The notes: generated by a model from the sequence alone, not told the origin. A stretch of 64,000 nucleotides of DNA from Planctomycetia bacterium (GCA_026401075.1 JAPLNQ010000237.1:28790-92789), one strand, 5' to 3'; positions 5,238 to 20,519 are shown, counted from the stretch's first letter. Numbers and translations: made by a program.

Positions 5238-7808
5238 GTGGCGACGAGCGTTTTCAGAGTGGCTTCGGTGTGGTGCGTTGTTGCGCTGGCGACGGTCTGC
5301 GTGGCTCCTGCCAGCGCAGCCGATGGCGTGCGGCCCATGCCCGATCCGTTGGCTCAAGCCGTGATCGAATCACTCGCCTTTCCCCCACGGACCACCCCCC
5401 CGGCCCTGCTCGATGCCGCGATCCGTGCCGCCGACGTCGAGGCCTACGACGTCGCTGCCCGCTATTTCTCCAAGTTCGCCGATGCGCTCGAGAAGGCGGG
5501 CGACAAGCGGCTCGATCTGCTCGCCGATCTGGGCGACACCGCCGATCCCGCCAGCCTTCGCCGGCTCGAGCGGGTGCTCGGCGACCTTGATGAAGACGTG
5601 CGGCCCGTCGTGCAGGCGATGCGTGAAGCCTCGCGGGAACGGCGGCGGGATCCCGCCCGGCTCAAGCGGGCTGCCGATGAACTCGCCAGCGACAAGCCCG
5701 CCACGCGGGCCACCGCCTTCGACCAGCTGGCGCGAGCTGGCGTCGATGCCCTCCCCGTGCTCGTTGACCTGTTGCAGAGCGAAGACGCGGCACAGGAGCG
5801 GTCTCACGAGCTCGCCCGGGAGCTCATCCGCACGCTCGGCACCGACGCCAGGCAGCCGTTGCTCGCCTGGCTGGGCTCCGACGACGTGCAGCACTGGCCC
5901 GGCGTCATCGAGGCGCTCGCTGCCAGTGTCACCCACGACGATGCCGCCACCGTCGCCGTGCATCTGCTGGCGCCGGCACTCGTGGCCGACGCGCCCCCGG
6001 CGGTACGCGATCGTGCAAACCGCGTGCTCAAACAATTGGCAGCCCGCGGGATGCTGCCGGCCGCCGACATGGACGGCAACACGGTGCCGCCAGGCCCCGG
6101 CACCGCGATCACGGTGCTCACCCGCAGGCTCGACCGGGTGCTCTCGATCGACGGCCTCCCCGCCCCCGACCACCTGATCATGGAACCGGTGCTCGATCCG
6201 GCCACGGCGTTCGCCGCCGCCGGCAAGACGGTGGAGCGTTTCGTCTGGAATCCGGAGGCAGGCCGGCTCGAGCGCGTGAATCTGTCGCCGCAGGCAGCAC
6301 GCACGCAGGAGGCAGTCCATCTGGCACGTGATCTGGCCGCGCTCGACGCCACTGATCCAGACGCCGTTCGCCTTGTGCTCCTCGCGCGGCTGGAATCGCT
6401 GCTGGCTGCCGCCGGCGATCCCCTCACGGCGCTCGACCGCGTGCCCACCGAACAGTTCCAGGACGCGGTCACGGGACCTGAGGGCTTCGACTACGAGGCA
6501 GCGGCCGACGTGCTCGAGATCGCGGCTTCACGTGGCATGTTCGCCGCAGCTGCCGGGGCGGCCCGGGCGATCGCGGCAGCTCATGCCGACGCGGTTGCCA
6601 AAGTCACTGACGCCCCAGCGACCGAAGACCCAGCGACCGAAGATCCAGCGACCGGCGACACGTCGACGGGCAAGAGGGCGGCCGAGGAACAAGCCGCTGC
6701 CGAGGCGGCCGCTGCCCTCACCCCCGCGGTGCGGGCATCCCTGCTGCGAGCGCTGGCGGTGCCCGACGCCACGCTGCAGTTCGAGACGGCGCGAACCCTT
6801 GCCCAGGCCGGTGGCGATCCGCCCTACCGTGGCTCGAGCCGCGTGGTCGAGATCCTGCTTCAGGCTGCCACCAGCACCGGTGAGGAGATCGCCGTAGTGG
6901 CACACCCCGACGCGGTCGTGCGGGAAGAACTGGCCACGAATCTCTCCCGGTTCGGCTACCGCATTGAAAAAGTCGCCTCGGGCCGCGACGCGATCCTCGC
7001 CGCACGGGCAAGCGTCGACACGGTGCTCGTTGTGATTGCAGCACGCACCGTCCGGCCCACGGCATTGGAGACGGTGCAGTTCATCCAACGGCAGGCAACG
7101 GGCGACGTGCCGCCGGTGCTCGTGGTGGTCGACCCGCTCGACGACGATGCCCGTGGCAAATTCCTCACGCAGCTGCTCCTGAAGTTCTCCGATCTGGACT
7201 GCGTCGGAATCATCGATCGCCTCGACAGCCTCTTCATGCCGCGGATCGACCTGGTCACCGGCAAGCTGATCGGACCGCCACGGTTTCCCGATCATCTGGC
7301 CCAGGTGGCCGGCCCGCAGGCCGTCGCCCCCGCGGCGCGGCAGGCCCGCGCGACGCAGCGAAGGACTCGCGCCGCACAGAGTCTGGCCCTACTGGCCGAC
7401 CTGGGCCGCCGGGGCTGGGACGTGGCGGCTGCCGAGACGACGGCGCGACTCGCGCTCATGCAGAGCCCGCAGCCAGGAAGCCCCACCAATCTCTTCGGCC
7501 CGGCCGCGTCCCTGCTGGGAACCATCGGTTCGAGCCGGGCGCAACAGGCTCTTCTGGGGGAGACGGAGCGGACCGACCTGCCCGCGGAGTCGCGGAAGCA
7601 GGCTCTCGCGGCCTTCGCCGAGAGCGTGAACCGCTATGGTGTGCTCCTCGAATGCGGTCCCCTACGGGCCGCCTACGCACGGTACAATCATTCGTCTGCG
7701 TCGACCGACCGAGCCGTGGCCGGAGCGGTCCTCGACGTCATTGAAACGCCCTCCAGGAAGGCCCGCCCCGTCTCTGCCGATGCTGCGCACCCCAGGCCAA
7801 CACGGTGA
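5238..7808 (+). CDS. hypothetical 856-aa protein with signal-peptide-like N-terminus, HEAT-like repeats and a receiver-like (non-phosphorylatable) segment
   Basis: GTG start at 5238 after a G-rich RBS. N-terminus [30 protein letters not shown]. Helical repeats around aa 150-230. [13 protein letters not shown] peptide repeat. A CheY-like pattern at aa 549-650 that lacks the acidic pocket. Confidence 0.6.
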
Positions 7809-8841
7809 CGACACCAGCTCTCCGATCAAGGGCCTGATCGGGTCAGGGCCGGCGATGATGGAGGTCTACGCGATGACGCGGCGGGTGGCCGCGTCGAATG
7901 CGTCGGTCTTGCTCGTGGGCGAGACCGGCACGGGCAAGGAGCTGGTCGCCAAGGCGATCCACCAGCTTTCGCCGCGAGGCAGCGGACCCTTCGTCCGCGT
8001 CAATTGCGGCGCTCTCTCCGAAAGCCTGCTGGAGAGCGAACTCTTCGGCCACGTCCGCGGCTCGTTCACCGGCGCGATCGCCAACCGCACCGGGCGGTTC
8101 GAGGCCGCCCACACCGGTACGATCTTTCTCGACGAGATCAACTCCACCACGCCGAAGCTGCAGGTGAAGCTCTTGCGAGTTTTGCAGGAACGCGAGTTCG
8201 AACGGGTGGGCGACACCGAGACGATCCGTGTTGACACGCGAGTGATCGCGGCGAGCAACCGCGAACTGCTCGACGAGGTGGCGAAGGAAAACTTCCGCGA
8301 GGACCTCTACTACCGTCTCAACGTCGTGCCGATCTACCTGCCTCCGCTGCGGGCCCGTCGGGAGGATATTCCACAGCTGGTGAGCCACTTCCTCGAACAC
8401 TACAACGAGGCCAACGACCGCTACGTCGTGCACATCCAAAAGGAGGCCGCAGCGGCGCTGGCGAAGTATCACTGGCCGGGCAACGTTCGCGAACTGCAGA
8501 ACGTGGTCGAGCGGTGTGTGGTGATGGCCACCGGTGACGAACTCACGCTCGACCTCCTGCCACCGGCAATGACGGGCGACCGGCCGACGGTTTCCCTTCC
8601 CGGACGAGGAGGCGATCTCGACAGCCTCGCACGGGACCTCGTGGAGCAGGGCATGGTGACGGCCGGCCCCGACGACGAGAACCTGTTCGACCGCATCGTC
8701 AGCCGCGTGGAACGGGAACTGATCGCCCAGATGCTCGCCGACTGCAAGGGCGTGCAGCTCAAGGCCGCCGCCCGGCTCGGCATCAACCGCAACACGCTCC
8801 GCAAGAAGCTCCAGGAGCACGGGCTGGAAGAGGCTGAGTGA
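7780..8841 (+). CDS. sigma54-dependent transcriptional activator (AAA+ plus Fis-type HTH only, no N-terminal sensory domain)
   Basis: ORF 7636..8841(+). The first ATG that leaves the AAA+ core intact is 7780 (MLRTPGQ...[12 protein letters not shown]). Walker A GETGTGKE, Walker B TIFLDEI, sigma54-contact loop GSFTGA, C-terminal [23 protein letters not shown]. It overlaps the upstream ORF by 29 nt. Confidence 0.8.
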
Positions 8842-8885: not shown

Positions 8886-9037
8886 CGTGGCGGCAAGTTT
8901 TTAACTTGTCCGTGTCTCCGCTCCCCGTGGCGGCAAGTTTTCAACTTGTCCGTGTCTCCGCTCCCCGTGGCGGCAAGTTTTTAACTTGTCCGTGACATAT
9001 CGCGGATTCCACAAGTTAAAAACTCGTGGCCACGAGG
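8886..9037. repeat. family 1 repeat array: 40-bp unit x2.7 in tandem plus terminal hairpin module
   Basis: The unit cgtggcggcaagttttTaacttgtccgtgtctccgctccc occurs at 8886-8925, 8926-8965 (1 mismatch) and 8966-8994 (truncated), followed by acatatcgcggattccacaagttaaaaactcgtggccacgagg. It lies between the convergent sigma54 activator and lipA genes. Confidence 0.85.
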
Positions 9038-9094: not shown

Positions 9095-10075
9095 TCACCC
9101 CACGATCATGCCGTCTTCGGCCATGTCGCGGGCGTGGTAGCTCGACCGCACGAGCGGTCCGCTGGCCACGCGTTTGAATCCCAATCCGCGGGCGAGCGAG
9201 CCCAACTCGTCGAACTCCTCCGGCGGCACATACCGCTCCACCGGCAGCGAATCGAGCGTCGGCTGCAGATATTGCCCGAGCGTGAGAAAATCGACACCGT
9301 GGTCGAGCAGGTCGGCGAAGACATCGAGCAGTTCGTCACGGGTCTCGCCGAGCCCAAGCATGAGCCCGCTCTTCGTCTTCACGGTCGGCATGCACCGCTT
9401 CGCATCCGCGAGCAATTGCAAGGTCCACGGATAGTGGCTCTTGCGACCGCGCACGGTGCGGTAGAGGCGGGGCACCGTCTCCGTGTTGTGGTTGAAAACC
9501 TCGGGCTTTGATCGCATCAGCCGTTCGATCGCTCCATCCTTGCCGATGAAGTCCGGCACCAGCACCTCGACCGTGGCACCGGTGGCCGCCCGCACCGCCT
9601 CCACCGTCAGCCGAAAGTGCTCGGCGCCGCCATCAGGCAGGTCGTCGCGGGTCACGCTCGTGATCACCACGTGCCTGAGTCCCAGCCGCTTCGCAGCCTC
9701 GGCCACGCGCTCGGGCTCGTCCTGCTCCAGCGCCTCCGTCTTTCCCTTCGGCACCGAGCAGAAGCCGCAGGGCCGCGTGCAGACGTTACCGAGGATCATG
9801 AACGTTGCGGTGCGGGCCGACCAGCACTCCAGCCGGTTGGGGCACTTCGCCGACGAGCAGACCGTCTCCAGGCCGAGTTCGGCAATCAGGTGCGCCGTCT
9901 CGCCATGGCCGCCGCCCGGCTCCAGATTCCGCCGCAGCCATGGAGGCAGCCGGCGGGATGGCTGCAACTGCACCGTCGCAGACTCGGCGGAGCCGCAGCC
10001 GGTCTTGCCTCCGGTATTGGGGCCGGCTCCGTCATCGACAGAAATGATCGGGAGGGAGCCGAACGGTGAGTCCAT
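9095..10075 (-). CDS. lipA: lipoyl synthase
   Basis: ORF 9095..10210(-), start at in-frame ATG 10075 (MDSPFG). Auxiliary cluster CSSAKCPNRLEC, radical-SAM CTRPCGFC, C-terminal RSSY. It starts 1 nt after the stop of the upstream LipB-like gene. Confidence 0.9.
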   Translation of the reverse strand: MDSPFGSLPIISVDDGAGPNTGGKTGCGSAESATVQLQPSRRLPPWLRRNLEPGGGHGETAHLIAELGLETVCSSAKCPNRLECWSARTATFMILGNVCTRPCGFCSVPKGKTEALEQDEPERVAEAAKRLGLRHVVITSVTRDDLPDGGAEHFRLTVEAVRAATGATVEVLVPDFIGKDGAIERLMRSKPEVFNHNTETVPRLYRTVRGRKSHYPWTLQLLADAKRCMPTVKTKSGLMLGLGETRDELLDVFADLLDHGVDFLTLGQYLQPTLDSLPVERYVPPEEFDELGSLARGLGFKRVASGPLVRSSYHARDMAEDGMIVG

Positions 10076-10076
10076 G

Positions 10077-10850
10077 TTATCCGACACTTCTCGTGCGCTC
10101 CGATGGTGCCGATCCGGCGACTTGAATCGCGATGGGAAAGCCCGACTGAATGTGCGATTGGGGAAACTCGAAGGCGTCGACGACGTGCTCCACGAGCGCC
10201 GCTCGGGCATCCTGCAGCCGCACCCGGCGTTGCACGTCGGCCTCCACCGATCCCATCGTATGCGTTCCGGCCCCGGCGGCGACAGGCACGCTTTTGATCC
10301 GGCGGTGAAGCTCGAGCGGGGGCTGAATGTTCAAAAACCCGCCGTGCCAGGCCACCCCCCGCCGCACGGCAACGCCGACGGCCGCCAGCAGCCCGGTCCG
10401 GCCGAAGATCCCGTGCATCCGGGAATCACGGGCCGCGCCACACCGCAGGCTGCGGATAGCCCCCTCGAGCCCGGACTCCAGCCGCTCCAGATAGGGACCC
10501 ACGGCGTGGCGACCGAGCCCCAGATCTGCCAGCGACGCAAACAGGCTGATACCAATCTGGCCGGGGCCATGCAGCACCGCTCCGCCACCGCGACCGACGA
10601 ATCGTACCTCCAGTCCGCGCGACCGCAGGTCATCATCGGTGAGGGCGATGTCGGCACGGGACCCGAGCCTCCCAATCGTGATCGACGGCGCGAGATCATA
10701 GAGCACGAGCGTCGGCGGTCGGCCATGCGGCTCCGACACCTCCCACGCAAGCCGCTCGGCCATCGCTCCGTAGGCCTCGAGGCCGATGGTGCCGGCCAGC
10801 CAGACGGCAACGCCCGAACGCGACGAACAGTCTGCACGACGTGCATTCAT
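10077..10850 (-). CDS. lipB: LipB-like octanoyltransferase family protein (BPL/LplA/LipB fold), catalytic Lys/Cys not evident
   Basis: ORF 10077..10976(-), start at ATG 10850 (MNARRADC). Family blocks RGGGAVLHGPGQIGISLF and AAVGVAVRRGVAWHGGFLNI. In a by-eye alignment to E. coli LipB, the EKKI lysine position reads GLLA and the PCG cysteine position reads PVA. Confidence 0.6.
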   Translation of the reverse strand: MNARRADCSSRSGVAVWLAGTIGLEAYGAMAERLAWEVSEPHGRPPTLVLYDLAPSITIGRLGSRADIALTDDDLRSRGLEVRFVGRGGGAVLHGPGQIGISLFASLADLGLGRHAVGPYLERLESGLEGAIRSLRCGAARDSRMHGIFGRTGLLAAVGVAVRRGVAWHGGFLNIQPPLELHRRIKSVPVAAGAGTHTMGSVEADVQRRVRLQDARAALVEHVVDAFEFPQSHIQSGFPIAIQVAGSAPSERTRSVG

Positions 10851-10863
10851 GATCGCGGTCGCC

Positions 10864-13800
10864 TCACTTCGCCAACGCCGCGTGCAGGGCATCCCACGGC
10901 AGCGGTGCCCACGGCAGGGCTTCCGGCAGGCGGATCGGCGCCGGGCCGTTGGCAGCCCGCGGTGTGAGACCGGCATCGGCCAGTTCGATCGCCCGGTCGA
11001 CGGCCGTCGTCAGACGGTCCAGCCAGGCCGGCACCTCCACGCCCGAGCCACCAGCCACGCCCAAAAATTTCTCGGCACAGGCCTCGAGCCTGCCGCCGGC
11101 TCCCACGGGGCTTCCCGTGAACAGTTCCTGCACGGCCGGATCCACCAAAGCCTCGAGTTCATCCTGCTCCAGCGGCATCGTGAACGGCCGCCGCACCCGA
11201 TCTGACACGCTCGCCAGCCGCACGCCCCAGTGCGTCTCCAGCCGCGCAAGCCGCTCCACCAAGTTCTCGGCCGTCGTGCCGGTCTCATCCCGCATGCGAC
11301 CCCGCCAGGCTTCGGCCGCCTCAACCGCAGCCCGCCGTGCCAGCACCCGGTGTGCCATGTTCACCGGCCGCAGCGTCCACGCGATGCGTTCGTGCTCCGC
11401 CTTGATTCGCAGGAAGTCGAGCAGCACGTGCAGGCATTCACCGCGATCCGATTGCGTGGTCGTGGAGTTCCAGTCGCGGTATTCCGAATGGTTTTCCGCC
11501 ACGCTCTCGAGCACCAGCCGCAGCCGCGACGCAGCCTGTTTGATCGGCAGGGCACCGCTGGCAAGATCCTCGAGCAGCCGCGTGGGACGCCGCTGCGGCG
11601 CTGGGGAGTCGGGCAGTTCGATGTCGTCCGGCTCGCCCGCCGCACGGTCCACGAGATGCTCGAGAAAATTCCGCACGCCACCGCGGAGGATGCCACGCAG
11701 CGACGGCGGCGAGAGCAGTTGCTGCGTGAAGAGGCCCGCGCCATAGCGTTCGACGAACGCCCGGATCGCGGCAAATGACTCGTCGTCACGGACCCGCTCC
11801 AGCACCGAGAGCCGTAGCTGCCGGGCATGCGCCGTCCAGGTGTCGAGCAGGCGGGGCACGAGCATCGACAGGCCGTCGAGAATCCGCTGCGTGGCCACAG
11901 CAGGCTCCGGCTTCGCGCTGCCAGCCTCCGCCACCGTCGCGGTCTCCACGATCCGCTCCACGAGCGCCTTGGTCCCGGCCTCGAACACGCGGTCGAACTC
12001 GCTCACGCTGGCCGCGCCCCTCGGCCGCCGGCTCTCGAGCGCCTTGGCAAGGTGCACCATCTCGGCCGTCTCCGCCACGAGCCCCAGCCGCGGCAGACAG
12101 GCCGCCAGCCGCGTCAGCAGCCGCTCCCTGCTCCGCGCCAGCACGATCCGCTTGGGATCACCACCACGCGCCAGCGGCACATAGAGCACCATCGTGCCGA
12201 CGAGCCTGCTCCGCACGAGGGCCAGCTGATCCCGCGTCGCTTCCGCCTCGCCCGCGAACATCGCCGCAAACAGCCTGCCAATCGATGCCTTGCCCGTGCG
12301 GCGTCGCGGCGACGGCGGCTGACCTCCACTCCGCATCCCGGCCCCATGCAGCCGCGCCGACAATATCCAGAGCGTCTCGCTCGCCTGCAACGCCGCCTCG
12401 ATCATCTGCTCGGCGGCGGCATCACGGTGCCACCGCAGCTTGTCGAACTCGGTGGGCGACATCCCCGGAGGCGGCGTGGCATCGCGACCGGCCACCGTGG
12501 CGGCCGCGCGGATCAGCGTCCGTCGCAGCCGCCGCACCGCATGCCGCCAGCCGGAAACGGCATCGATTTCAGCCTGCGACGGGCTCGTGCCCGCCGCCGC
12601 ATCGCTCGTACACCACGCCACCACCGCATCCGCGAGCAGCCGAAATACGCCCATCATGAATTCGGCCGCACTCTCCACTGCCGCCACGCCCGCCAGCGTC
12701 GAGCCGCCGCCGCCTTCCATGTCGAGCATGCCACCATCGACGCCGTCGTCAGTGGAGTCGCGCCAGACCATCGACTCGTAGGCCGACGCCACACGTTCCT
12801 CGCCGCTGTCATCGTCATCCGTCTGTTCGTCGGCGAAGTCGTCATGGAGACCGTCGGGACCGTCGGCCTCCCGCGCCGGCCGCCTGCCATCCCCCGGTTC
12901 GCGACCGGTCGCGGCCGCCTCGATCACGTCGGCCACGCCGCTGGTGTTGGCCTCGATCAGCTCGATAAACCGGCGGACGCGGAGCCTGGCCGTCTCTGAT
13001 CGGTCGGCGCAGGCACGTGTCATCCACCGCACGGCCTCCCCCATCCAGACGACGCCGGAGCGGTCGATCGCCGAACCCTCCAGTAACGACGCCCAGTGAA
13101 TGAGCAAACCCATCGCGCCGTCGAGATCCCCCTCGCGGAGCAGGCAATCGGTGGCCTGCGCATGCGTCTCGGGCGACGAGAACGACGCCACTTCCTCCCG
13201 CCAGAAGCCAGGCGGCGGCGGCAGGGGTGCGGTCTCACGGCGGCGCGTGAGCGCCGCGATCACCTCCCGTGCAGAGTCGTAGACCTCGCGGCCGGAGAGA
13301 TGCGGCACGCCCGACACCGTCGTCGTCGCGAACCGATCCCACCAGCCACCGAGGTGTTCGCCGGCGTCCGCTGCCCGCGCCGCCGCAGCCGGCGGTCCGT
13401 CGAGTGCGGCCTGTCGCCACACGGCGGCATACCCGTCGAGGATCGATTCCGTGATCCCGACGAGATCATCCACGCGTGGATCGGTCAGGCTTTCGCCTCC
13501 GGGTTCGTGGAGGGGAAACTGTCCGCCCAGGCCGAGGATGTTCCACGGATCGACCAACGCGCCACAGGCCACCGCCCGCATGAGCAACGTGGTGGCGGCA
13601 TCGAGCTGATCGAGTGCGGCGGTACTTTCTTGCGCGCAGATGCGCTCATCGGCGCCTGCCGCCTGCCGCAATGACTGCTGCGCCGCCACGACGCGGCTGG
13701 TGATTCTGGCCGCCATACGGGCCGACGCGGCGGGCACCATGCCGGCCATCCGTTCCGCGCCGTCCGCCCGTCCCAGTCGCGCGAGCACGGCCGCCAGTGC

Positions 13801-15042
13801 CACGCTCTCCACCTGGCGCGCCCGCCGGCTGGCGAGCAGGCTGTTGATGTGCCGCCGCACGCCACCGAAGGGCTGACGCAGACGGCTGGTCTCCTCGTCC
13901 AAAACCTGCCGATGATCCGCCGGCAACTGCGTCATCAGCCAGCGGTAGAACTCGTCGCGGTAACCGGCGATCCGCGGGAGCAGGTCGGCCAGCGGCAGAC
14001 TCGCGGAGGTCGCTCCCGGTCCGTGACCGGACAGACCCGAGGCCATCAGGATCACGCCCGCCAACACGGCCGCCGACTCGCGCCGCAGCTGCGCCTGCCG
14101 CTCAGGCCCGAGATCGGCAGGCGACTCGACCGCCGCCTCGGCCCACGACAGGATGCCGTCGAGGGTGGCCTGCTGCACCACCATGCGCCGGTAGCAGCCC
14201 TGGCCATCGATGCGGGCGGGGTCCCACAGGCCGAAGAGATAGTTGGGCCGACTCGCTGCGGGATGCAGAAAATCAAACGCGCGCGGATCAAATGCCAGCT
14301 CCTCCAGCATGGCGAGCTCAAAGTCGGCCTGTCGCAGGAGCGGTTCCGGCGCCTGTTCAAGGATCGCCATCGCATCCTCCACGAGCCGGCGGTAACGGCC
14401 GTGCGCGGCACCCGCTCCGCGGATGAACAGCGGCACAGGCCGGACTCGCTCGTGTGGATAGGGCTCCGAGAGCTGGCCGTTTTCAAGCACGGCCACCGGC
14501 CGCCAGCCGACGTAGTCGTTGAGCCGGCCGATCGCCTGCCGCACGATGGCGTCGAGATCGGCACCAGCCACGTCGCTGGCCAGATCGCTAGCTAGGATGG
14601 CCATCGCCGCCGCCATCAGGAAGAAGGGCCGTTCGAAGCCGCCAGCTGGCTGATGTTCCAGAAGATCGCCGTGGAAGGCACGGTAGGCCGGCAGCAGTCG
14701 GGAGAAGAGCAGGTCGAGCACCGCCCTGGCCTGCGTGGCGTCCCGAAATGCGGCCTCGGTTACCGCAAGCGCCTCCAACCGCTCGGCGAGAAGGACGGCC
14801 ACGCGGGTCGCGGCATCGGGCCGCTCCACGATCGGGCCGGCGGCGGTCGCGGAGTGCTCGGGGGGCGACTCGACAGCCTCAAAAACGGCATTCATCGCCC
14901 GCCAGACGGTCGGATCGAAGGCCCCGGACGAGAAGTTCAGATACCCCAACACAACGGCCGCGGGATCACTCGGTCGGGTCCGCTTGGGATCGACCTGCGG
15001 GGTGTGTCTGGAATCGGTGGGGGAGTCCTGCCGCATCGGCAA
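10864..15042 (-). CDS. hypothetical 1392-aa protein, apparently all-helical, no recognisable domain
   Basis: A single uninterrupted ORF with high third-position GC. It ends 13 nt before the LipB-like start. It contains an acidic linker (DDFADEQTDDDDSGEE) in the middle. I recognise no catalytic motif. Confidence 0.7.
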   Translation of the reverse strand: MPMRQDSPTDSRHTPQVDPKRTRPSDPAAVVLGYLNFSSGAFDPTVWRAMNAVFEAVESPPEHSATAAGPIVERPDAATRVAVLLAERLEALAVTEAAFRDATQARAVLDLLFSRLLPAYRAFHGDLLEHQPAGGFERPFFLMAAAMAILASDLASDVAGADLDAIVRQAIGRLNDYVGWRPVAVLENGQLSEPYPHERVRPVPLFIRGAGAAHGRYRRLVEDAMAILEQAPEPLLRQADFELAMLEELAFDPRAFDFLHPAASRPNYLFGLWDPARIDGQGCYRRMVVQQATLDGILSWAEAAVESPADLGPERQAQLRRESAAVLAGVILMASGLSGHGPGATSASLPLADLLPRIAGYRDEFYRWLMTQLPADHRQVLDEETSRLRQPFGGVRRHINSLLASRRARQVESVALAAVLARLGRADGAERMAGMVPAASARMAARITSRVVAAQQSLRQAAGADERICAQESTAALDQLDAATTLLMRAVACGALVDPWNILGLGGQFPLHEPGGESLTDPRVDDLVGITESILDGYAAVWRQAALDGPPAAAARAADAGEHLGGWWDRFATTTVSGVPHLSGREVYDSAREVIAALTRRRETAPLPPPPGFWREEVASFSSPETHAQATDCLLREGDLDGAMGLLIHWASLLEGSAIDRSGVVWMGEAVRWMTRACADRSETARLRVRRFIELIEANTSGVADVIEAAATGREPGDGRRPAREADGPDGLHDDFADEQTDDDDSGEERVASAYESMVWRDSTDDGVDGGMLDMEGGGGSTLAGVAAVESAAEFMMGVFRLLADAVVAWCTSDAAAGTSPSQAEIDAVSGWRHAVRRLRRTLIRAAATVAGRDATPPPGMSPTEFDKLRWHRDAAAEQMIEAALQASETLWILSARLHGAGMRSGGQPPSPRRRTGKASIGRLFAAMFAGEAEATRDQLALVRSRLVGTMVLYVPLARGGDPKRIVLARSRERLLTRLAACLPRLGLVAETAEMVHLAKALESRRPRGAASVSEFDRVFEAGTKALVERIVETATVAEAGSAKPEPAVATQRILDGLSMLVPRLLDTWTAHARQLRLSVLERVRDDESFAAIRAFVERYGAGLFTQQLLSPPSLRGILRGGVRNFLEHLVDRAAGEPDDIELPDSPAPQRRPTRLLEDLASGALPIKQAASRLRLVLESVAENHSEYRDWNSTTTQSDRGECLHVLLDFLRIKAEHERIAWTLRPVNMAHRVLARRAAVEAAEAWRGRMRDETGTTAENLVERLARLETHWGVRLASVSDRVRRPFTMPLEQDELEALVDPAVQELFTGSPVGAGGRLEACAEKFLGVAGGSGVEVPAWLDRLTTAVDRAIELADAGLTPRAANGPAPIRLPEALPWAPLPWDALHAALAK

Positions 15043-15214
15043 TCGTGCCTCGTTGTTTCACGCTCGTCCGGGGACGGCACGGGCCTCGGGGATCGCGCCG
15101 GCAGGCCTGCAGTTTAGCAGTTTCGCCGACCATGATTTCGTGGGCTAAGCTTGAATGGCGGGAATCCGGCCCCGCCGCTTCCGATGCCCAGTCCTTGAGA
15201 ATCAGGCCTCTGAT

Positions 15215-16597
15215 ATGATCGCCAGGATTCACACTCGAGCCCATTTGAGCCTTCTTCTGCTGCTGGCGGTCGCTTCCGCGGCCGTCGCCCCCACCCAGGC
15301 CGTCGGGCAGTCCTGCCTTGCCGGCACGGCCGCCGACGAATTCACCGCCGACGCGGCAGGACTGACGCGCGAGTGGATCCTGCAGCTGCCCTACGTGGCG
15401 AGTGGCTATAGCCTGGATCAGGTGGTGGTGGGAGACGGGCTGGTCGTGGCCCAGACCTCTGATGGAACCGTCCACGCCGTGCAGGCCGCCCCCTGGGGTG
15501 AGGGCTCCCCGGCGGCAGGTGCTCCGAGGCCCGGGTCGTTGCTCTGGTCACAGCGGGTCGGCACCGGCGGTGGCCCGATCACGCGGGCCGGCATCGGCAC
15601 CGATCTCGTCGTTGTTCCCCATGACCGCATCATCACCGGCCTGGAACGGTCGACTGGCCATCTCCGCTGGGAAGAGCCATTCGGTCAGATCGTGTCGGGC
15701 GGCGCAACCGTGATCGGCAACTGGGCCTACGTGCCCAGCTCGCCAGGGACCGTCAATCGCGTCGCCGTGAATCCGCTGCGACACTCGGCGGAAACCACGA
15801 CAGCAGACGACAAACGGGCGGCAGCGCCGACTGGCAAGAAGGCCGCCAAGAAGACGAAGGCCAAGCGGCAACGGAAGGAGAGCCTCACGCCCATCGCCAT
15901 CCAGTCCGGCGGCAATAACCACGTCGAAATCGCGCCGATCCAACTGACGACCGGCGTGCTCTGGTGCACATCGGACGGGTTGCTAGTCACCCTTCAGCCC
16001 AGCGAACTGGACTGGCGGCGGCTCGAATTCTCGCTGGAAAATCCACCGGCGGGTTCTCCCGTGGTGCGGGACCGCAGTATTTTCGCCGCCACGACGGCGG
16101 GCGACCTGGCGCGGGTCGACCTTCCCGTCAGCAACAAGAAGGAGCTGCAGCTGACATGGCACACGGTGCTGCCAGGCCCCGCCTTCTCCGGGCCGTTTCT
16201 CTCCGGCGACACGGTCGTCGTCTCGCTCGGCGATCTGGGGATCGCCGCCTATTCCGCCGAGACGGGCGTCGAACGCTGGCAGACCTGCCTGACCGGCAAA
16301 ATCCTTGCCGTCGGCGGCGGCCGGGTGTGGCTCATCGATGAACTGGGGAAGCTTTCCGCCTTCGACCTTGCCGATGGCGCCCCCCGCGAGCGGCTCTGCC
16401 TTGGACCGTTCACCCTGCCGGTGGTCAACATCCACTCCGACCGGCTGCTGCTGGCATCTTCGTCGGGCATGCTCGTGAGCCTGGCGCCACGGGCGACAGG
16501 CACGCCCACCCCCGCCGAGGCGGCCGACCCAGCCGCTACCGCGCCCGTTGCACCGGCACGCGGGACTTCGGGTCCTGCCGCCACGCCTCGACCATGA
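15215..16597 (+). CDS. secreted PQQ-like (BamB-type) beta-propeller repeat protein
   Basis: ORF 15155..16597(+), start at in-frame ATG 15215 giving signal peptide MIARIHTRAHLSLLLLLAVASAAVAPTQA. Repeated xxD/ExxTGxxxW blades (LERSTGHLRWEE, SAETGVERWQT, FDLADGAPRERL). Confidence 0.7.
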   Translation: MIARIHTRAHLSLLLLLAVASAAVAPTQAVGQSCLAGTAADEFTADAAGLTREWILQLPYVASGYSLDQVVVGDGLVVAQTSDGTVHAVQAAPWGEGSPAAGAPRPGSLLWSQRVGTGGGPITRAGIGTDLVVVPHDRIITGLERSTGHLRWEEPFGQIVSGGATVIGNWAYVPSSPGTVNRVAVNPLRHSAETTTADDKRAAAPTGKKAAKKTKAKRQRKESLTPIAIQSGGNNHVEIAPIQLTTGVLWCTSDGLLVTLQPSELDWRRLEFSLENPPAGSPVVRDRSIFAATTAGDLARVDLPVSNKKELQLTWHTVLPGPAFSGPFLSGDTVVVSLGDLGIAAYSAETGVERWQTCLTGKILAVGGGRVWLIDELGKLSAFDLADGAPRERLCLGPFTLPVVNIHSDRLLLASSSGMLVSLAPRATGTPTPAEAADPAATAPVAPARGTSGPAATPRP

Positions 16598-18471: not shown

Positions 18472-20247
18472 TCAACGACTCTGCAACCTGCCTCGCCGGG
18501 ACCATCCCGACAGCAGTGCGACCGCTGCGACCGCCACACACGCCCCCAGCGGCAGACTCCCCCAGACAAGCCACGGACTCGTGCGGCCGTCGGGCCTGAC
18601 ACGTGCCCGCAGGGTGCCAGTAGCCCGCCTGGGCCCCCTGGCCAACAGCCGGCCCGAACCGTCGATCCAGGCTGAAAACCCCGTGTTTGCCGCGATCGCC
18701 AGCGGCGTCCGCACCTCGACCGCCCGGAAAATCGCCGCCGTCAGGTGCATGTCGAGTTCACTCGACCCCCAAAACCAGCCGTCGTTGGTGAGGTTGACGA
18801 TGACGTCGGGCCGGCCCCCTTGACGGCCCAGTTCGAGCACCAGCGTCCGCACCGCCTCCGGCAGGGCTGTCTCATAGCAGATGTTCACCGCCACACGCGA
18901 GCCGGCGATCGTCACCGCCACCGGCTGGGTGCCGGCCGTCAAGCCAGCCGGGAGCGGCGTGAGCCGGTAGAGCCAGGGAAAACGCTCGGCGAGCGGAATG
19001 TACTCGCCAAACATCACAGGGTGCTGCTTGCTGTAGCACGCCAGCGCGACGCCCTCGGGATCGAGAAACAGACCGCAGTTGTAGTTTTTCGCGCCGGACG
19101 GGGCGTGTGGAGTGACCACCTGCTTGTCGAGGCCAACCAACCAGTGCGTGCCATACCGCCGCGCGAAGGCGGCCAGCAGCGTGAGCCGTTCCTGCTCGAG
19201 GACGCGACGACAGACCGCCTGCCGATCGGCGGCAGTCCCCGTCGTATCCCGACCGGCGAGCGTCTGCGCGACGACGCTCTCGGGCAGCACCTCGTCGGGA
19301 TCGATATCGAGCAGTCCCCACCGCCACATCGTCTCCGGCCAGACGATGAGGTCGGGACGCGATGGGCCGGCTTCACCCACGGCTGGTCCTTCACGCAAGT
19401 CCAGCGCAGCCATTGTGAGGTCGTCGTAGTGCTGTGCCACATCACCGGCGGCATCGGGATCATGCTTGAGTTCGGTGTCGATCGATCCCTGCACGAGCAG
19501 CACGTCGAGCACAGGGCCTTCCGACCGCGGCTCGCCCTGAATCCGCCAGTGTCCGTAGCCGATGGCGGCGACCAGCACGACGGCGGCGGCCAGGCCCGCC
19601 AGGACGGCCGCACGAACGCGCTCGCGCGACGCCACCGCGGCGACGGACTCGGCCAGACCGGCGGCCACGGCCATCACCACGCCCCCCACACCAACCGCCC
19701 CCAGGCAATCAGCCACCTGGATGAGCGTGGTCCATCGCCACTGGGTGTGTCCCAGTCCGCCGAACGTGAAGCCTCCCAGCACCGAGCCGCGGAGGTGCTC
19801 GCAGGCCATCCATGCCACGGGCGCCGCCACCACCAGCGGCCACCGCCAGCCATGCACCAGCCGGCGGGCGATCGCGACGAAGAGTGGCAGGGAGCAGGCC
19901 AGATAGGCCGAGAGTGCCACCCAGCCGATCGACGTCGCGGGGTGTGGCAGCCGCAGCCAATGAATTGCGGCCAGCCAGTGGCAGAAGCCGCCCAGCCACA
20001 GGCTCCGCCACGGATGCGCGGCCGAGAGACGGTCGGCCTGCACGATCGCCAGCCACGGCAGCGGCGCCAGCCAGGCGAGCATCCAGCAGTCGGCAGGCGG
20101 TTGCACGAGAAACATCGCGGCCGCGCCGGCCAACGCGAGGGACAGTACGCCGCGGCCGTTCAACGTCCCGTGAAACAGACCGGCCGTGTCCAGGCGGTCG
20201 AGCAGCAACCGGCCCAGCCGGCCCGCTTCGGTCGGCCGGTGCGTCAT
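18472..20247 (-). CDS. lnt: apolipoprotein N-acyltransferase
   Basis: Multi-TM N-terminal half followed by a CN-hydrolase domain with DLIVWPETMW and VAVNICYETALPE. 591 aa. Confidence 0.85.
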   Translation of the reverse strand: MTHRPTEAGRLGRLLLDRLDTAGLFHGTLNGRGVLSLALAGAAAMFLVQPPADCWMLAWLAPLPWLAIVQADRLSAAHPWRSLWLGGFCHWLAAIHWLRLPHPATSIGWVALSAYLACSLPLFVAIARRLVHGWRWPLVVAAPVAWMACEHLRGSVLGGFTFGGLGHTQWRWTTLIQVADCLGAVGVGGVVMAVAAGLAESVAAVASRERVRAAVLAGLAAAVVLVAAIGYGHWRIQGEPRSEGPVLDVLLVQGSIDTELKHDPDAAGDVAQHYDDLTMAALDLREGPAVGEAGPSRPDLIVWPETMWRWGLLDIDPDEVLPESVVAQTLAGRDTTGTAADRQAVCRRVLEQERLTLLAAFARRYGTHWLVGLDKQVVTPHAPSGAKNYNCGLFLDPEGVALACYSKQHPVMFGEYIPLAERFPWLYRLTPLPAGLTAGTQPVAVTIAGSRVAVNICYETALPEAVRTLVLELGRQGGRPDVIVNLTNDGWFWGSSELDMHLTAAIFRAVEVRTPLAIAANTGFSAWIDGSGRLLARGPRRATGTLRARVRPDGRTSPWLVWGSLPLGACVAVAAVALLSGWSRRGRLQSR

Positions 20248-20519
20248 GGGACAGCCTCGAATTCGGCAATCACCGTGCCGGGTGTCACAACGTCATCCTC
20301 ATCCACGAACTGCGTCATCAGGCGGCCCGCGACGGGCGCCTCCAGGTCGATGGTCGCTCCGCCGACGAGCAGTTCCACCACGCGATCCCCTTCCAGCACA
20401 TCGGCGCCCTCGGGCACGAGCCAAAGGGATACCCGCATCGACATGCCTATCACGCCGCACTCCGGCACCGCCAGCGGCTCGCGTCGAGGGTGGGCGTCTG
20501 TCGGCATTCCTGTCTGCAT
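20244..20519 (-). CDS. biotinyl/lipoyl-like (barrel-sandwich hybrid) domain protein without any lysine
   Basis: ORF 20244..20633(-). Plausible starts are ATG 20519 or 20507. The pattern LAVPECGVIGMSMRVSLWLVPEGADVLEGDRVVELLVGGATIDLEAPVAGRL follows lipoyl-domain spacing, but the E-x-D-K-A position reads LVGGA. It overlaps the lnt start by 4 nt. Confidence 0.5.
   Translation of the reverse strand: MQTGMPTDAHPRREPLAVPECGVIGMSMRVSLWLVPEGADVLEGDRVVELLVGGATIDLEAPVAGRLMTQFVDEDDVVTPGTVIAEFEAVP

Follow-up and report, generated by a model that had tools for sequence, protein, structure and literature searches.

We analysed a stretch of 64,000 nucleotides (nt) from a Planctomycetia bacterium (GCA_026401075.1, JAPLNQ010000237.1:28790-92789), hereafter called the window, which has a G+C content of ~67%. 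Between positions 9095 and 15042 it carries three genes that are co-oriented on the minus strand, in the order: a very large gene, a gene for a protein resembling the octanoyltransferase LipB, and lipA, the gene for lipoyl synthase (Table 1). The coordinates, the co-orientation and the short spacers given for these genes in a first-pass annotation of the window were all correct when checked on the sequence: 13 nt (GGCGACCGCGATC) separate the stop codon of the large gene from the ATG of the LipB-like gene, and a single nucleotide lies between the TAA of the latter and the ATG of lipA. The same annotation had described LipA as complete, and the LipB-like protein as keeping the LipB fold blocks while lacking the catalytic residues, and had proposed that the protein either uses a different chemistry or has been co-opted by the large protein as a binding module.

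LipA is, judged by its motifs and profile scores, a canonical lipoyl synthase. It scores 344.7 bits against TIGR00510, above the cutoff of 310.25, and 380 bits against NF004019. It contains the auxiliary-cluster motif CX4CX5C (CSSAKCPNRLEC), the radical S-adenosylmethionine (radical-SAM) motif CX3CX2C (CTRPCGFC) and, at its C-terminus, the RSSY motif, so that the description of both Fe-S cysteine motifs and RSSY is borne out.

Table 1. Coordinates of the genes and sites discussed in the text; the last seven rows belong to distant loci outside the window.
Feature	Position	Strand	Remarks
LipB-like gene	10077..10850	-	257 amino acids (aa); LipB fold and substrate-binding loops, predicted to lack the Cys/Lys dyad
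RGG loop and HGPGQ	10557..10592	-	RGGGAVLHGPGQ; LipB substrate-binding loops
Cys137 codon	10440..10442	-	clade-specific invariant motif RCGxxR
Leu154 codon	10389..10391	-	catalytic Lys position (E. coli K135, M. tuberculosis K142)
Ala192 codon	10275..10277	-	acyl-thioester Cys position (E. coli C169, M. tuberculosis C176); hypervariable loop
lipA, canonical lipoyl synthase	9095..10075	-	326 aa; assigned by TIGR00510 and motifs
Gene of the large, predicted all-alpha protein	10864..15036 from ATG (TTG at 15042)	-	1390 aa (1392 from TTG)
Lipoyl-domain look-alike	20244..20507	-	87 aa; VGGATIDL replaces xxDKAxxE; 9.4 kb from the LipB-like gene
Terminator-like hairpin with T-run	9023..9036	-	~60 nt past the lipA stop; consensus match only
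Sigma-54-dependent activator	7636-8841	+	downstream, convergent with lipA
PQQ-repeat/BamB-like protein	15155-16597	+	upstream, divergent from the large gene
Look-alike gene, locus L083	11778-12059		
Look-alike gene, locus L085	12025-12303		
Look-alike gene, locus L086	5988-6233		
Look-alike gene, locus L088	11860-12126		
Look-alike gene, locus L089	9835-10095		
Look-alike gene, locus L090	9757-10026		
Look-alike gene, locus L091	10491-10727		

Fold, catalytic positions and binding pocket of the LipB-like protein

The fold blocks of LipB are present in the LipB-like protein. It scores 67 bits against the Pfam family LplA-B_cat (PF21948; cutoff 27) and stays below the cutoffs of both LipB equivalog models, with 38.0 against 83.55 bits for TIGR00214 and 44.7 against 155 bits for NF010925. 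When searched against the Protein Data Bank (PDB) with phmmer it found LipBs only, namely those of Thermus thermophilus (2qht/2qhs, E=2e-15) and Mycobacterium tuberculosis (1w66). A profile built from 40 sequences of the family matched 2qhs at E=8.6e-40 and the M. tuberculosis LipB at 1e-28, and solved lipoate-protein ligases weakly, with E-values of at least 0.045.

Of special interest are the two positions that form the catalytic dyad of LipB. In the phmmer alignments to 2qht and to 1w66, Leu154 lies under the catalytic lysine. The cysteine of the PCG motif faces Ala192 in the alignment to 2qht, and an alanine of AAG191-193 in the alignment to 1w66, where a gap stands just before the cysteine. 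The family profile gave the same dyad-less result. Proper pairwise and profile alignments to solved LipBs thus place neither a lysine nor a cysteine at the catalytic positions, in agreement with what had been read from an alignment by eye, and by these alignments the catalytic Cys/Lys dyad is absent from the LipB-like protein.

This absence extends to its relatives. We aligned 121 LipB-like members with at least 62% identity, referred to here as the clade, and found leucine at position 154 in 119 of them, valine in two and lysine in none; in the wider LipB-like family the equivalent residue is Q, L, P or R. Position 192 is A, V, G, P, T or S across the clade, and any cysteine within residues 178-200 occurs in only 4/121. 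The sole lysine of the window protein, K186, is replaced by arginine in 73 of the 121 clade relatives. The protein shares the PF21948 catalytic domain with the LipM/LplA/LipL branch of the superfamily, from which it differs by the loss of the superfamily-invariant lysine and of the LplA accessory domain, and by weak sequence similarity: we found no lysine at the aligned position of the LplA K133-type active site, and no C-terminal accessory domain in its 257 residues.

The residues that bind the substrate have been retained. The clade shows little or no variation at R87, G88, G89, G90, H94, G97, Q98 and N174, and the RGGG..H.PGQ loops are likewise invariant or almost so in the wider LipB-like family; the role of the RGG loop has been set out previously (PMC9307952). 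In E. coli LipB, the residues that match lipoyl-contacting residues of LplA are V41, T48, R71, T76, H78 and H150, to which Q82 is added (PMC9307952). Their equivalents in the window protein are Y51, T58, R87, V92, H94, H169 and Q98, which gives an identity of 5/7 in the acyl pocket.

Measured against relatives at a dS of 0.36-0.54, the ratio of nonsynonymous to synonymous substitution rates (dN/dS) is 0.10-0.13 for the LipB-like gene, 0.08-0.10 for lipA and 0.13-0.15 for the large gene. These values indicate strong purifying selection on the LipB-like gene. It is hardly credible, then, that this open reading frame (ORF) is a decaying lipB relic without function, even though both catalytic residues are lost and the TIGR00214 score of 38 bits is the lowest of the family members tested: dozens of residues are invariant, the family is conserved down to ~30% identity, and the ORF is intact in 80/80 species-level genomes, all of them metagenome-assembled genomes of Pirellulales/Planctomycetia with 56-94% identity. 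With a dN/dS of ~0.1, we rejected a pseudogene.

The last 29 residues of the LipB-like protein (10077-10163) form a conserved tail that is missing from canonical LipB. It reads FPxSHIQSGFP...E..SRVG in the clade and H..TGHP in the wider family, whose common element is (S/T)G(F/H)P, the terminal RVG belonging to the clade of the window. This tail could be a docking motif.

The wider family and its gene neighbourhood

We searched 1.84 billion cluster representatives exhaustively and obtained 2,389 matches at E<=1e-3, of which 381 reached E<=1e-10. The family spans hundreds of 50%-identity clusters from the Pirellulales, the Planctomycetales, including the cultured Lacunimicrobium album, and the Gemmataceae. 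Of the 150 best matches, 127 representatives were aligned: 97 have neither the lysine nor any cysteine in the PCG region, four have the canonical dyad, and about ten of the remainder, several from Gemmataceae, have kept the cysteine and lost the lysine. Where canonical LipB has GVWVxxxK, the family has the motif GxWGRTG(Q/L). Scores against TIGR00214 fall stepwise from 133 bits for canonical LipB (132.9 for the representative P0353) to 85, 75, 68 and finally 38 bits for the window protein; of the members scored with this model, its clade has diverged furthest. The proteins that retain the cysteine alone (L086 4384-5124, L091 8001-8852, P0349, P0369, P0382 and P0384) have sequences that suggest steps on the evolutionary way from canonical to dyad-less proteins. 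Compared with LipB (TIGR00214; 1W66, 2QHS/2QHT), the window protein has in common the fold, the RGG loop, HGPGQ, the acyl-pocket residues and a gene directly upstream of lipA, but it differs in the lack of both dyad residues, the hypervariable cysteine loop, the score below cutoff, the GRTG(L/Q) motif and the conserved C-terminal tail.

In all 80 clade loci the LipB-like gene is adjacent to lipA. It also lies upstream of lipA in all of eight distant loci (26-35% identity), which were reached through database representatives and their contigs and include L. album and a Gemmataceae genome; stop and start codons often overlap there, and one of these loci, L091, has acquired a Uma2-family gene between the two. 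Because the genes are tightly spaced or overlapping, we suggest that the LipB-like protein and LipA are produced together. The gene of a canonical LipB representative adjoins E3/E2/E1 genes instead.

The large gene behaves differently. Its position could be scored in 67 informative clade loci, and it lies within 300 nt upstream of the LipB-like gene in 41 of them (gaps of ~15-111 nt), is separated by 0.76-5.8 kb and inserted genes in 20, one insert being an aminotransferase gene, and is absent from six; in the three loci lacking it that we inspected, an FGGY kinase gene stands directly upstream of the LipB-like gene. None of the eight distant loci has it, and all eight keep the LipB-like gene and lipA. 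Moreover, the flanking genes for a sigma-54 activator and a PQQ-repeat protein are collinear in most clade relatives to the same degree, so that the triad reflects local gene order, part of a general collinearity. The large gene is a lineage-specific neighbour outside the conserved LipB-like/LipA unit. The synteny on which the proposal of a three-gene unit depended largely fails, and it is very improbable that the LipB-like protein is a binding module that serves the 1392-aa protein in a functional triad. In favour of such a triad, the large gene and the LipB-like gene are only 13 nt apart in the window and close together in the 41 relatives, which makes co-transcription plausible within the lineage; in this Pirellulales lineage the large gene is probably transcribed together with the LipB-like gene and lipA. 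The LipB-like gene and lipA may be an old planctomycetal pair, upstream of which the large gene would have landed in this lineage.

A third component emerged from the distant loci. In seven of the eight, lipA is directly followed by a small gene (78-93 aa) encoding a Biotin_lipoyl domain, and these homologues score 35-39 bits against PF00364. The window contains a related gene away from lipA, and there the stop codon of this gene and the ATG of lnt overlap. The encoded protein matches the small protein of locus L083 (tblastn, E=2.5e-12) and the lipoyl domains of E2 proteins (phmmer, E=0.0025-0.011), with a glycine at the lysine position. The lysine that carries the lipoyl group is missing from all eight of these look-alikes, the one in the window included: the K of DKA is replaced by D, G, P, S, G, Q, A and G. 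From the look-alikes that adjoin lipA in the distant loci we infer an ancestral module consisting of a dyad-less LipB, LipA and a lysine-less lipoyl domain, in this gene order.

A parallel exists in plants, where the BADC proteins of acetyl-CoA carboxylase are look-alikes of the biotin carrier that lack the biotinyl lysine. The planctomycete look-alike would likewise be a mimic of a carrier domain without a modifiable lysine, kept beside the real machinery, although it belongs to a different cofactor system and a different kingdom.

Possible roles beside lipoyl synthase

Because the dyad is lost and the gene is under purifying selection, the proposal of non-canonical chemistry or a binding role was a fair one; recruitment to the large protein is not supported by the synteny. 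We favour, with a probability of roughly 0.5, the reading that the LipB-like protein is a non-catalytic (or non-thioester) partner of LipA that binds the octanoyl or lipoyl arm, and that the large gene merely abuts it. Binding of the arm is suggested by the retained octanoyl/lipoyl pocket and phosphopantetheine-binding loops. An acyl-thioester intermediate would be impossible for such a protein, and since it could not form one, it may serve LipA, with which it would be co-produced, as an adaptor or regulator without catalytic activity. Octanoyl transfer would then be carried out by a LipM/LplA-type enzyme encoded elsewhere. A 2014 survey found LipA together with an LplA/LipM-like gene in five of six Planctomycetes genomes, and LipA with an annotated LipB in none of them (PMC3917532, Table 4).

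A laboratory counterpart of this natural protein exists in the engineered E. coli LipB K135A/C169A, which lacks the same two residues: the double mutant is catalytically inactive and still binds octanoyl-acyl carrier protein (C8-ACP) with a dissociation constant (Kd) of 36 uM (PMC9307952). The natural protein resembles this engineered binder because it has lost the dyad while conserving the substrate-binding apparatus. In contrast to the artificial mutant, the natural proteins have in the course of evolution acquired partners and additional conserved features.

Several points weigh against an arm-binding partner. The LipM hint from the 2014 survey is old and not specific to the clade of the window. 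A conserved gene in the classical lipB-lipA position is also what would be expected of a working octanoyltransferase. A tblastn search of the window, together with related loci totalling 1.2 Mb, revealed no second LipB or LplA, though so tiny a sample is far from enough to infer absence; the queries were E. coli LipB and LplA sequences, of which LipB matched the LipB-like genes only and LplA matched nothing. Finally, each subfamily has an invariant cysteine of its own, and either could be a relocated nucleophile. Cys137 is conserved in 121/121 clade members, 17 residues upstream of the lysine position, and could be such a nucleophile in the window protein. In the P0253-like subfamily, the cysteine of a CEH motif is present in 119/119 sequences.

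These cysteines lead to a reading that we consider possible but clearly less probable, in which the LipB-like protein is the cell's octanoyltransferase and works by a different chemistry: the acyl group would either pass by direct aminolysis within a ternary complex or be taken up by a nucleophile at a new position (Cys137, or the CEH cysteine in the sister subfamily). Its operon position is the classical one, purifying selection is strong, and the substrate-binding loops and pocket are intact. The catalytic cysteines of LipM and LipB themselves occupy different sequence positions. A stepwise path that preserved activity is also conceivable, because members with the cysteine alone exist, mostly in the Gemmataceae, and E. 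coli LipB K135A remains active, retaining about one fifth of its Vmax (PMC9307952). However, no cysteine or lysine is conserved across the entire dyad-less family: the position of Cys137 is V, I or L in the wider family, and the column of the CEH cysteine (residue 51) is Y, C, F or A in the clade of the window. The latter column corresponds to V41 of E. coli LipB and to W37 of LplA, which contacts the lipoyl moiety, and its cysteine would thus sit near the distal part of the acyl chain and not at the thioester carbon. Catalysis is also lost in the engineered K135A/C169A protein. Since donor and acceptor share one site, LipB presumably works by a ping-pong mechanism, and direct transfer would thus be unlikely without remodelling. 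The partner lipoyl domain that is conserved along with the protein, moreover, cannot be acylated.

The pocket for an acyl-lysine arm would also suit an amidotransferase or relay analogous to LipL that would pass octanoyl or lipoyl groups from a primary carrier such as GcvH to E2 domains in a LipM-based pathway without LipL. The chemistry of LipL itself goes through a cysteine thioester intermediate, whereas this family has no cysteine that is conserved throughout, and its lipoyl-like partner lacks a lysine to which the cofactor could be attached. For these reasons we regard such a relay as unlikely, although Planctomycetes have been reported with LipM-like genes and LipA (PMC3917532), and many bacteria with LipM and LipA lack LipL and may have unknown amidotransferases (PMC10332631).

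More tentatively, and extending the partner of LipA to the third gene, we propose that LipA, the dyad-less LipB and the lysine-less lipoyl domain might together constitute an undescribed planctomycete module of lipoyl assembly, in which a pseudo-enzyme and a pseudo-substrate are accessory to lipoyl synthase. We give this module a slightly lower probability than an octanoyltransferase with a different chemistry, and a distinctly higher one than a LipL-like relay. Within such a module, an octanoyl thioester held non-covalently could be presented to LipA, so that sulfur insertion would take place off the target protein; alternatively, the pair could serve as a decoy that regulates LipA. In the Pirellulales clade of the window, the module would have become partly dispersed and its LipB-like protein altered further, with the CEH motif lost and the invariant RCG cysteine gained.

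The assembly of the lipoyl cofactor is considered to be well charted, with LipB or LipM, LipA, LipL, LplA and LipS1/S2 as its enzymes. Surveys nevertheless still describe lineages with a seemingly incomplete set of genes, for example with LipM and without LipL (PMC10332631). The LipB-like family, which keeps its place beside lipA across much of the phylum, may represent a pseudoenzyme that occurs in nature as the partner of a radical-SAM enzyme, or else a LipB with a new chemistry. The names in the databases also deserve attention: JGI records and some NCBI records call its members 'lipoyl(octanoyl) transferase', and other NCBI records 'lipoyl protein ligase domain-containing protein'. Because dyad-less proteins carry the first of these names, Planctomycetota may be assigned an absent LipB activity when their pathways are reconstructed. 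In the searchable literature we found no account of a LipB family without the dyad, of a pseudoenzyme derived from LipB, of LipB-like proteins in Planctomycetes or of a LipB-LipA-lipoyl-domain module.

The large protein and the flanking features

The consensus of its homologues places the start of the large protein at the ATG at 15036, and the resulting 1390 aa equal the length of the 98%-identical P0121 and P0122; it probably starts at this ATG, two codons into the ORF that opens with TTG. The label of orphan given to it in the first-pass annotation was wrong, as at least 1,320 homologues match it at E<=1e-3, and among these the top 120 share 64-98% identity with it. The remark that it contains no recognizable motif holds: searches of Pfam, NCBIfam, PADLOC and, with a profile, the PDB sequences returned no match, and no Pfam domain was found among the best 120 homologues. 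No transmembrane segment was detected.

Structure prediction with AlphaFold2 (AF2) gave confident models for residues 3-725 and 740-1392, with mean confidence (predicted local distance difference test, pLDDT) of 78 and 81 and predicted template-modelling scores (pTM) of 0.73 and 0.80. Helices make up almost the whole of both models, and a small beta region lies around residues 180-290. Foldseek comparison of both halves with the PDB assigned no fold, returning generic helical-repeat and solenoid matches with best E-values of 0.28 and 0.04 and template-modelling (TM) scores of at most 0.29. According to these models and searches, the large protein is a soluble, all-alpha and conserved protein. 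Between its helical halves, within an otherwise variable acidic linker, lies a strongly conserved motif, EE(S/R)VASAYESMVWRDSTDDGVDGGMLD (residues 742-772, at 12727-12819), a region where the AF2 pLDDT is below 50.

Around the locus, a scan for sigma-70 promoters returned no site, a result that is uninformative for a planctomycete. An ORF of 494 codons runs antisense to lipA and the LipB-like gene, overlapping both (9483-10967, plus strand), with a G+C content at third codon positions (GC3) of 0.78. Homology strongly supports the genes on the minus strand, and the antisense ORF is therefore most likely one of the shadow ORFs typical of DNA with high G+C content.

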